A stretch of DNA of 64,000 nucleotides from Escherichia coli (GTDB taxonomy: Bacteria > Pseudomonadota > Gammaproteobacteria > Enterobacterales > Enterobacteriaceae): the NCBI RefSeq assembly GCF_003334335.1, contig NZ_QOWQ01000007.1, one strand, 5' to 3'. Each line of letters starts with the position of its first letter. Positions within the stretch are counted from its first letter, which is position 1. The notes under the pieces were generated by a model. It was not told the origin of the DNA, searched no databases, and saw only the letters and a list, made by a program, of their open reading frames with translations. Shown in pieces: positions 6,801 to 9,800 of the stretch. The translations under genes were made by a program, and so were the position numbers.

Positions 6801-9800
6801 GAGATGTGCCGTAGACGCATCAGCGTTGACATTAATTGATGTGCTAAGCGTGGAGCTACCATTTTCCAGACTGGCCTCAACGGTATCCGGTCTCGCTCCT
6901 GATTCTATCGAGGAGCGGGTATTGGTATAAGTGACGGTAGCCTTACCCTGTTCGTTCGTCACGGCTTGACCGCCGTTCGTCATTTCGGCTGTCGCTGCGT
7001 TGCTGGTGAAGTTCACAGTCACACCTTTCACCGGAAAGCCATTATTATCAACGACTGTGGCGGTGATGACGCTGCCGGAGCTGTTCTGCGGGGTACCGGC
7101 GATTATGCTGTCTGGGACAGGCGTCAACTCGATAATTTTTGCCGCCGCTGTGTCGCCAATAAAATGCACAGTTTTGTTGTCGCTGGCACCATTATTAGCC
7201 AGTGATGCAGTGACCGTCTGCTCACCAAAGGCAACGCCTGCGAGAGTGGCCTGCGCGATGCCAGACTCATTGGTATTACTTACTCCCGGGGTCAGGGTGA
7301 GTCCTGAAGAGGCTGAGCTGAATGTTACCGGAAGATTATTCACCTCATTGTCGAACTGATCTTTAACCGTTGCAGTTAGCGTTGCGTTATCGACGCCATT
7401 ACCTGTGATCTCATCTTTTGACATCTGCAGGACAACCTGAGCCGAGGTTTTGTCCGCCACAAATGTTACCGGCTGCGAATCACTGGTATTGTTATTACCC
7501 AGCGTTGCGGTAACCGTATGCGTACCCGCTTTTTTACCTTTGAGCGTGACATGCGCTTCCCCATTGGCTTGGGTGATGGCAATGCCGTTATTTTCGAGGG
7601 TAAAGTTTGCCGCCACGCCCTGTGGCATGGTGAAGTTCACCGTTATTCCCGCCACCGGATGATTCGACGGATCTTTCACCGTTGCCGCCAGCTGCACGCT
7701 GTCACTGTTATTCGTCACCACCTGTTGAGCAGGGATGTTCAGCGTAACCTGCGCGTTGCTGGCATCGGGCGCAATATTGACTGTCGTTGTATAGCCGTTG
7801 CCGTTAGGAAGTGTGGCTTCGACTGTATGAACGCCCAAAACCGTGCCCTTAAGGGTAACTTCAGCAACACCACTGTCGTTAGTATTGCTTTTGCTCTGAC
7901 TAAGTTGAGTATCTGCCGGGTTGGTACTGAAGGTGACCGGTAGATCTTTTACTGCGTTATCAAAAGGATCTTTCACTGTTGCCGTCAGAGTCGTCTCATC
8001 CACGCCATTCCCAATGATTTCCGCTTTCGATGTTTGCAGAACGACAACTGCGCTGTCCTTATCCGCCACGAATGTGACTGGTTGCGCATCGCTGGCATTA
8101 TTGTTACCCAACGTTGCGGTAACCGTATGCGTGCCCGCTTTTTTACCTTTGAGGGTGACATGCGCTTCGCCATTGGCCTGAGTGATGGCGATGCCGTTAT
8201 TTTCGAGGGTAAAGTTTGCTGCCACGTCCTGTGGTATGGTGAAGTTCACCGTTATTCCCGCCAGCGGATGATTCGACGGATCTTTCACCATCGCCGTCAG
8301 CTGTACGCTGTCGCTGTTATTCGTCACCACCTGTTGAGCCGGGATGTTCAGGGTGACCTGCGCGTTGCTGGTATCGGGCACAATATTGACGATTTTCGTA
8401 TCGCTTTTACCGTTAAGCAGTATGGCTTCGGCTGTATGAACACCCAAAACCGTGCCTTTAAGGGTAACTTCAGCAATACCGTTCTCATTAGTATTAAGCG
8501 CCTTCAGACTCAGTTGCGTGTCTGCGGGGGAGGTGCGGAAGACTACTGACAGATTTTTAACCACGTTATCAAAAGGATCTTTCACTGTTGCTGTCAGAGT
8601 CGTCTCATCCACGCCATTCCCAATGATTTCCGCTTTCGATGTTTGCAGAACGACAACCGCTCTGTCTTTATCGGCCACAAACGTCATTGGCTGTGTATCG
8701 CTGACATTGCTGTTAGCCAGACGAGCCGTGATCATATGCGTGCCCGCTAACGTGCCGGTCAGGGAGGCGATTGCAGTCCCGTTGCTATCCGTCATGCCTT
8801 TTCCGCTGTTGCTAATCGAGAACCGACTTGCGACGTCGTTTGGCACAGAGAAGGTGATTTCTTTATCTTTTAATGGGTTGCCATTTTTATCCTGCAAGGT
8901 TGCAGTCATATGTAGCGGAGCTGTGTTGGTGACGGTGATATCACCTGAAGGCACACTGAGGGTCAGGGCAGCAGTACTTTGATCACCGATAAAAATCACC
9001 TGTTGATTAGCCTGAGAACCAGAGCTCACAGAGGCCGTAACCCTATAATCACCATTTTTCAAACTGGTCAGCGTAGCTGTGGCGATCCCGTCGTGGCTAT
9101 TCACTTCGGTTTGGCTCAGTTTCGCTGCTGCTGAATTAACATTGAAAGTGACCTTGACGTCATTGAGCAGGTTGCCTTTTGCATCCCGGACTGTCGCGGT
9201 CATTGTGGCGCTATCATTGCCGTCAGCGACCACTTCATTTTTCGACTTCTGCAGATCAACCTGCGCGGTACTCGAGTCGCCGACAAAACTGACAATTAAC
9301 GTTTGTTTCACGCCATTTTCAAGGGTGACTTCAACCGTGTTGTCTTCCTGCTTACTACTTTTCAGATCAAAAGTCGCCAGACCATTAACATCCGTTTTTG
9401 CGGTGTTTTGATTGTTAAAGCAAGTTGCCGACCCGCTTAATACCGCAAACGTGACGGTATGATCATTGATTGGGTTGCTTCCTTCATCTGCGACATTGAC
9501 CGAGACGGTGTTTGCTGCATTCTCATTGGCGAGCACACCATTATTGCTGGCAGATAATGTCGCAATTTTTGCTGACTGCGGGTTGGCGTCGATGATAAAT
9601 CCAGCGGTATGCAAATCTTCATTCCAGTTTTGCATTAACAGCTTCGCAGTAAGCCCACTGCCTCTGGTATAGGCGGTATAGGTTGCCTTATAGACGCCAT
9701 CTGCGGTTTCTTTCCAGTCTGTAGTGACACCAGGTTTCACGTTGTCGATGCTGACTGCGTTATTCAGTTGCTGTTTTTGCTCCTTAACAGGTTTGTCATT

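Follow-up and report, generated by a model that had tools for sequence, protein, structure and literature searches.

A long allele of the Escherichia coli adhesin gene yeeJ with a probably ancient two-domain tandem duplication and probable gene conversion and unit loss within it

By its sequence, a gene on the minus strand of a 64,000-nucleotide stretch of Escherichia coli DNA (NCBI RefSeq assembly GCF_003334335.1, contig NZ_QOWQ01000007.1; here the window) is yeeJ, the orthologue of b1978, predicted to encode the inverse autotransporter (type Ve) adhesin YeeJ in its long, UMN026-type form. Its stalk of immunoglobulin (Ig)-like domains contains a 609-bp tandem repeat, and this repeat belongs to the common published long yeeJ allele and is not peculiar to the source strain. 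The repeat appears to descend from an ancient duplication of a two-domain module, the copies of which have been turned into a mosaic by gene conversion. Some genomes have probably lost one unit by recombination, and a separate deletion probably generated the shorter K-12 gene. As a whole, this reading is assigned a probability of about 85%.

Several lines of evidence define the repeat. Self-BLAST of yeeJ yields one strong off-diagonal match, of gene nucleotides 3036-3857 to 3645-4466, at a lag of 609 (82.6% identity, 827 columns, E = 0). A direct repeat finder and a lag profile return the same spacing; Tandem Repeats Finder gave no output, the longest period that it allows (500) being below 609. 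Over the whole repeated region (window 7318-8748, minus strand), identity at lag 609 is 0.82, as compared with 0.255 ± 0.015 after shuffling (maximum 0.30; 1000 shuffles). The original prediction, made from the letters of the window alone, had placed an in-frame 609-bp tandem duplication of Ig-like domains within yeeJ at 7370-8710. The self-BLAST span brackets that interval, and the two 33-mers quoted in support do lie exactly at 7512 and 8121. Two copies had been proposed; self-BLAST with the shuffle control instead delimits about 2.35 copies, arranged head to tail, of a unit of 609 bp (203 codons).

Each unit corresponds to two Big_1 domains, B4-B5 and then B6-B7, followed by the start of B8. 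In the BLAST register, and with all features on the minus strand, unit 1 (8140-8748; gene nucleotides 3036-3644) comprises the tail of B3, B4 and most of B5; unit 2 (7531-8139; gene nucleotides 3645-4253) comprises the tail of B5, B6 and most of B7; and a partial unit 3 (7318-7530; gene nucleotides 4254-4466) holds the tail of B7 and the start of B8 and is more diverged, at about 50-70% identity. The tail of B3 resembles those of B5 and B7. B4 (8358-8654; amino acids 1044-1142) is 77% identical in amino acid sequence to B6 (7749-8045; amino acids 1247-1345), and B5 (8046-8357; amino acids 1143-1246) is 91% identical to B7 (7437-7748; amino acids 1346-1449). B8 (7137-7436; amino acids 1450-1549) is an older relative of B4 and B6, with 54% identity, and other pairs of Big_1 domains in the protein show a background of 25-45%.

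The copies had been described as near-identical, which holds for tracts of up to 98% identity but not for the whole, as identity between copies is a mosaic ranging from 0.62 to 0.98 in 45-nucleotide windows. Units 1 and 2 differ at about 90 sites. Likewise, the peptide said to recur almost verbatim over some 300 amino acids is present, but protein identity between the copies is 82-84% over 216-273 amino acids. The block at 7975-8085 does recur at lag 609, with 90% identity, although at 8584-8694, 4 nucleotides from the predicted 8580-8690. Two tracts stand out, given here by their unit-1 side on the minus strand. The first, tract A (8569-8658; gene nucleotides 3126-3215), is 98% identical to 7960-8049 and contains exact runs of 65 and 28 nucleotides. 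The second, tract B (8119-8388; gene nucleotides 3396-3665), is 91-96% identical to 7510-7779.

An older periodicity surrounds the repeat. Across B2-B8 (window 7137-9260), B2, B4, B6 and B8 resemble one another, as do B3, B5 and B7, at 39-54% identity versus about 30%, and other long alleles show weak DNA similarity at a lag of 1218. This alternation and the lag-1218 signal suggest that the stalk was lengthened by successive duplications of two-domain modules.

The long form is not a K-12 gene with a 609-bp insertion. Alignment with K-12 YeeJ (2358 amino acids) leaves a single gap, in the K-12 protein, opposite amino acids 1065-1366 of the window protein (2660 amino acids). The allele is thus longer than that of K-12, as predicted, but the extra length had been attributed to the 609-bp duplication and is instead this one 906-bp (302-amino acid) segment. 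Outside the gap, K-12 yeeJ is 98.0% identical over nucleotides 1-3209 and 98.5% identical over the 3' 3891 nucleotides. The segment missing from K-12 (7686-8591, minus strand) begins within B4 and ends within B7, and its exact position can shift within an 11-nucleotide motif, GTGAAAGATCC, which encodes part of the TATVKD strand and is present in each of B4, B5, B6 and B7. The copy in the TATVKD codons of B4 (8575-8585, minus strand) is the left boundary of the K-12 deletion, and the copy in B7 (7669-7679, minus strand), exactly 906 nucleotides downstream in the gene, is its right boundary; both lie inside a stretch in which 17 of 18 nucleotides match. At the K-12 junction the sequence is that of B4 up to GTGAAAGATCC and that of B7 after it. 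The resulting chimeric B4/B7 domain scores as an intact Big_1 domain, giving K-12 a total of 13 domains versus 16.

K-12 strains match the 906-bp segment only at its nucleotides 292-665, at about 82%, through the similarity of B5 and B7. No counterpart was found in K-12 strains for segment nucleotides 1-291 and 666-906, which hold what is left of B4 and the greater part of B6. Because the remainder of B4 and the bulk of B6 have no K-12 counterpart, the long form was not made by duplication within a K-12-like gene. K-12 yeeJ is therefore best read as the derived form, produced by a 906-bp deletion from the long one, a direction inferred from these sequence comparisons.

Synonymous divergence (dS) between the units varies widely by tract. 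It is 0.05 in the first 29 codons of B4/B6, 0.26 in the first 80 codons of B5/B7 and 0.28 in the C-terminal part of B4/B6, and it reaches 1.3 in the B3/B5 tails, 1.6 in the middle of B4/B6 and 2.1 in the B5/B7 tails. Between E. coli alleles of yeeJ, dS is 0.055-0.077. The same identity mosaic is found in the window, ECC-1470, O157:H7 and F95 alleles, the last being 92% identical overall. Units in the same position differ across strains at 10-31 sites and unit 1 differs from unit 2 at 71-91, with copies grouping by position and not by strain. Since same-position copies are closer to one another than the two units are, the duplication appears to predate the divergence of the compared alleles, and it is probably ancient.

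These data bear on the proposal that the expansion is recent, that is, a 609-bp tandem duplication within a K-12-like gene, perhaps selected for stalk length or antigenic variation. The greater length of the window allele relative to K-12 and the lag-609 tracts of up to 98% identity would fit such an event. However, the alleles differ by 906 bp and not by 609 bp, K-12 lacks a template for segment nucleotides 1-291 and 666-906, dS is saturated in the unconverted tracts (1.3-2.1), and four long alleles have this structure in common, among them one from a lineage only 92% identical. Nor does selection on the repeat find a footing: the ratio of nonsynonymous to synonymous divergence (dN/dS) between units stays under 1 in all tracts, at about 0.1-0.5, and thus gives no pointer to diversifying selection, and long and short YeeJ do not differ in published assays of biofilm formation, adhesion and related properties (PMC5595812). 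A recent duplication of this kind is accordingly considered highly improbable.

Gene conversion between the copies has probably made the mosaic. In the B5/B7 tract, paralogue differences are no larger than allelic ones, and polymorphisms are common to both copies. One conversion tract is itself polymorphic: in the two-unit allele of FDAARGOS_944, 26 of 26 diagnostic sites within unit 1 (gene nucleotides 3221-3307) carry the unit-2 state, with the flanks and unit 2 unchanged. Uneven selective constraint along the domains could in principle yield a similar pattern, and the most conserved stretch does hold the TATVKD strand motif, which is common to many Big_1 domains. Yet the unevenness is seen at synonymous sites, where dS goes from 0.05 to above 1.5, and constraint accounts neither for a polymorphic, non-reciprocal replacement of 26 diagnostic sites nor for B5/B7 polymorphisms common to paralogous copies, which makes it an unlikely source of the mosaic.

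A related signal is in line with gene conversion and was also evaluated as a possible expansion. A B6-specific 95-mer occurs in two copies in 40 genomes, and a B4-specific one occurs in two copies in 4 genomes. The interpretation of two B6-specific tracts as a three-unit allele was rejected in FDAARGOS_944, the sole one of the 40 inspected, which has two units and the conversion tract.

Alleles with a single unit indicate that the repeat changes in length. The first to be recognized, in GSH8M-2, is exactly 609 bp shorter and retains an intact open reading frame (ORF) of 2465 amino acids. Such alleles occur as a single colinear match in 48 complete genomes and are 93-100% identical to one another; the genes are 7374 or 7398 nucleotides long and encode 2457 or 2465 amino acids with 14 Big_1 domains. 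The count of Big domains across alleles that had been proposed as a check therefore gives 16 in the window, 14 in one-unit alleles and 13 in K-12. Crossovers were typed in 7 of the 48 one-unit alleles, using 95 sites fixed between the units. In all seven, the left part is of unit-1 type and the right part is of unit-2 type. In four of them (class I) the switch falls at gene nucleotides 3307-3615, an interval that spans the B5/B7 tract and overlaps most of tract B; in the other three (class II), including O157:H7 TR01, it falls at gene nucleotides 3192-3221, in the N-terminal B4/B6 tract, that is, in tract A. The longest stretches over which the two units match exactly (65 and 28 nucleotides in one tract, 25-29 nucleotides in the other) fall within the switch intervals, as expected of homologous unequal crossing-over, and the two switch places imply at least two independent unit-loss events. 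The suggestion that the repeat is recombinationally unstable is thus borne out by 48 genomes and two crossover sites.

The observed length changes are losses only. No three-unit allele was seen among the best 120 protein matches, in the repeat region of the sampled genomes or in FDAARGOS_944. The opposite polarity, in which the one-unit, 14-domain allele is ancestral and the two-unit allele arose within E. coli, could draw on the existence and diversity of one-unit alleles, with their mutual identities of 93-100%. An ancestor, however, is expected to be intermediate throughout and not a two-part mosaic, and each typed allele is a clean recombinant of unit 1 and unit 2, with switch points in two different places. 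Moreover, O157:H7 TR01 has one unit, against two in the remaining O157:H7 genomes of the sample. A one-unit ancestor is for these reasons very unlikely.

O145:H28 RM12761 (NZ_CP007133.1) has independently lost about 850 bp of the same repeat region, equivalent to gene nucleotides 3577-4425, a deletion that puts its yeeJ out of frame.

The existence of a long allele is not new. Martinez-Gil et al. (2017, Sci Rep 7:11326; PMC5595812) described two yeeJ length variants, long in UMN026 and short in MG1655, that differ by a 906-bp fragment of three Big domains “made up of a repeated section”, the fragment repeating sequence that MG1655 yeeJ also contains. The UMN026 allele and that of the window share gene, locus and the 906-bp difference, and nothing essential distinguishes them. 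The same study demonstrated surface exposure and activity in adhesion and biofilm formation for the MG1655 and UMN026 alleles, that is, in strains other than that of the window. The 609-bp two-domain period, the 11-nucleotide deletion junction, the conversion mosaic and the 14-domain alleles were not found in the text of PMC5595812.

The long allele is frequent, and O157:H7 is among its carriers. Among 5,426 complete genomes of E. coli, about 1,276 contain at least 80% of the 906-bp fragment, and 1,256 match a 1701-nucleotide query spanning the repeat region at a coverage of at least 80%, the match forming one colinear piece in each of the long alleles that were sampled. Across the repeat region, several independent assemblies match the window at 100% identity. 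The best 120 protein matches to YeeJ are all from E. coli and have 2660 or 2669 amino acids, apart from one of 2768. The number of short alleles is approximate, at about 1,400, being the difference between 2,713 near-full-length genes and the roughly 1,276 long ones; a 121-nucleotide query across the K-12 junction was unusable for this count, as its half-matches in long alleles merge into one place. A class with a 1060-bp span, exemplified by ECC-1470, was considered as a separate allele and rejected, being an ordinary two-unit allele with a 1-nucleotide frameshift.

Because the repeat is widespread, colinear and 100% identical in independent assemblies, it is neither an assembly artefact nor strain-specific. 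A false duplication had been a natural concern, in that repeats are open to mis-assembly and a 2768-amino acid E. coli protein of the nr database carries odd within-domain duplications in the same region. Against this stand the 1,256 complete genomes, the intact reading frame and the approximately 90 differences between units, which make the units easy to separate in assembly. An artefact in the window is therefore extremely improbable.

Other alleles depart from the long form in various ways. The 2768-amino acid nr protein is 108 amino acids longer than that of the window through partial duplications of 58 and 50 amino acids within B5 and B7 (window approximately 7670-8360), which would break the Ig fold and are probably due to mis-assembly in the repeat. 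Inactivation of the gene is common: it is frameshifted in ECC-1470, F95, EC12, FDAARGOS_1277 and FDAARGOS_944 and carries IS3-family insertions in some genomes, O157:H7 Z570 among them. Of the genomes that match yeeJ at all, about half have less than 80% of it left, and CFT073 and others sampled in this class retain about 30%. In F95, RM12761 and GSH8M-2, the gene is about 86-87% identical to that of the window from nucleotide 4400 or so to its end. As the 5' half is 95-97% identical, yeeJ alleles appear from these sequences to be mosaic, with parts drawn from two or more old lineages. The 3' lineages also differ slightly in the length of the end, as seen in the one-unit alleles of 2465 and 2457 amino acids.

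Taken together, these observations support a proposed history in four steps. First, a two-domain module would have undergone an ancient in-frame tandem duplication, yielding B4-B5 and B6-B7, with B8 as an older relative. Second, the copies would have diverged. Third, intragenic gene conversion may have made the copies alike again over the 29 codons at the start of B4/B6 and over most of B5/B7. Fourth, the resulting near-identical tracts may serve as substrates for unequal homologous recombination that removes one 609-bp unit, leaving 14-domain alleles. In a separate event, illegitimate deletion between two copies of GTGAAAGATCC would have removed 906 bp and joined the beginning of B4 to the remainder of B7, giving the 13-domain K-12 allele. 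The consequence for the protein should be a shorter or longer Ig-like stalk, by analogy a few nm per domain on a rod with a C-terminal lectin-like tip. This figure comes from the rods of invasin and intimin.

Several points weigh against parts of this history. RecA-dependent crossover, slippage and illegitimate recombination are read from the junctions, and the directions of the events are likewise inferred. The term “ancient” relies on comparisons within E. coli and on dS values for tracts that are short, at 24-40 codons; a scan of contigs, one genome per species, with a B3-B8 peptide returned no orthologue and only an unrelated metagenome-assembled genome of the Acidobacteriales. Some one-unit alleles, such as that of O157:H7 TR01, could be assembly collapses, and the remaining genomes with two B6-type tracts could include three-unit alleles.

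The identity of the gene is supported by its sequence, domains and location. The coding sequence (3801-11783, minus strand) starts with ATG at 11783 and ends with a stop codon at 3801-3803, as delimited by the ORF and an annotated match; the full minus-strand ORF extends over 3801-11858 (8,058 nucleotides). It is 100% identical to that of WP_139125923.1 from strain 1506, and genes annotated YeeJ are 96-98% identical to it. According to the annotations of strain 1506 and BW25113, the surroundings are as in K-12, in the order tRNA-Ser, mtfA, tRNA-Asn (asnT), yeeJ, a GT9 glycosyltransferase gene and shiA; tRNA-Asn lies at 12097-12172 of the window. Upstream of yeeJ in RM12761, a PAAR-domain gene and a hypothetical gene replace mtfA and tRNA-Asn.

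The protein matches Pfam IAT_beta (PF11924) at amino acids 144-419 (E = 2.8e-113), and profile searches identify its passenger as a long array of Big_1/Invasin_D3 Ig-like domains. Sixteen Big_1 domains (B1-B16) were counted at E < 1e-5 with a profile built from eight of YeeJ's own Big_1 domains. The C-terminus gives weak matches only, to Invasin_D4 and Intimin_C (E = 0.002 for the latter). In NCBIfam no YeeJ-specific model passed, and the intimin, SinH, IatC and all inverse-autotransporter models remained below their cut-offs. A LysM domain and a C-type-lectin-like tip have been reported for YeeJ, and the K-12 LysM domain binds peptidoglycan experimentally (PMC5595812). Pfam LysM matches the N-terminus weakly (E = 0.4), and this N-terminus is 98-100% identical to that of K-12 YeeJ.

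Two kinds of neighbouring sequence complete the description. The GT9 (heptosyltransferase-like) gene, convergent with yeeJ at 2487-3539 on the plus strand, has an intact ORF of 350 amino acids in the window and in strain 1506, and the annotations of K-12 BW25113 and isolate F95 list it as a pseudogene containing an internal stop; its likeness to lipopolysaccharide heptosyltransferase I is weak (E = 1e-9, far below the cut-off). Opposite the yeeJ repeat, two antisense ORFs on the plus strand, 8034-8549 (171 amino acids) and 8452-8982 (176 amino acids), are most likely by-products of repetitive coding sequence.

As the long/short polymorphism and its repeated nature have been known since 2017, the significance of these results is small beyond bookkeeping. 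Even so, a third, 14-domain class of allele bears on the typing of yeeJ by 906-bp polymerase chain reaction, on annotation and on the use of YeeJ as a surface-display scaffold. A bolder proposal is that the B4-B7 module is an actively recombining cassette in which conversion tracts continually regenerate substrates for recombination and which switches the stalk among 16, 14 and 13 domains, with length selected to match the thickness of O-antigen or capsule. If true, it would amount to population-level tuning of the length of an inverse autotransporter and would account for the report of the long form mainly in pathogenic isolates; it is, however, rather doubtful. If stalk length is selected against surface shielding, the natural series of 13, 14 and 16 domains makes yeeJ a convenient locus for its study.

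Intimin and invasin, which are type Ve inverse autotransporters with rods of Big_1/Invasin_D3 domains and a C-type-lectin-like tip, share with YeeJ the IAT_beta barrel and an Ig-like array, and the C-terminus of YeeJ weakly matches Invasin_D4 and Intimin_C. Their arrays are much shorter than that of YeeJ, which is extended to 16 Big_1 domains, and we know of no receptor of the Tir or integrin type for YeeJ. The K-12 deletion recalls the classic E. coli deletions between short repeated sequences in lacI, in that it ends in two exact 11-nucleotide copies. Unlike those laboratory mutations, it is natural, widespread and in-frame, and it has kept a foldable chimeric domain.

Surface proteins with repeats of variable copy number include streptococcal alpha C and Rib, staphylococcal Bap, enterococcal Esp and E. 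coli UpaH. To our knowledge, repeat variation in yeeJ has no link to immune escape. Variation in UpaH and Ag43 is mentioned in PMC5595812. Like these tandem-repeat surface proteins, yeeJ has in-frame repeats of whole Ig-like domains, and recombination changes domain number between strains. The repeats differ in degree and in direction, as units in such proteins are typically above 95% identical, whereas those of yeeJ are 82% identical with a mosaic of 62-98%, and the changes seen in yeeJ, namely one or two units and one chimeric deletion, are contractions only.

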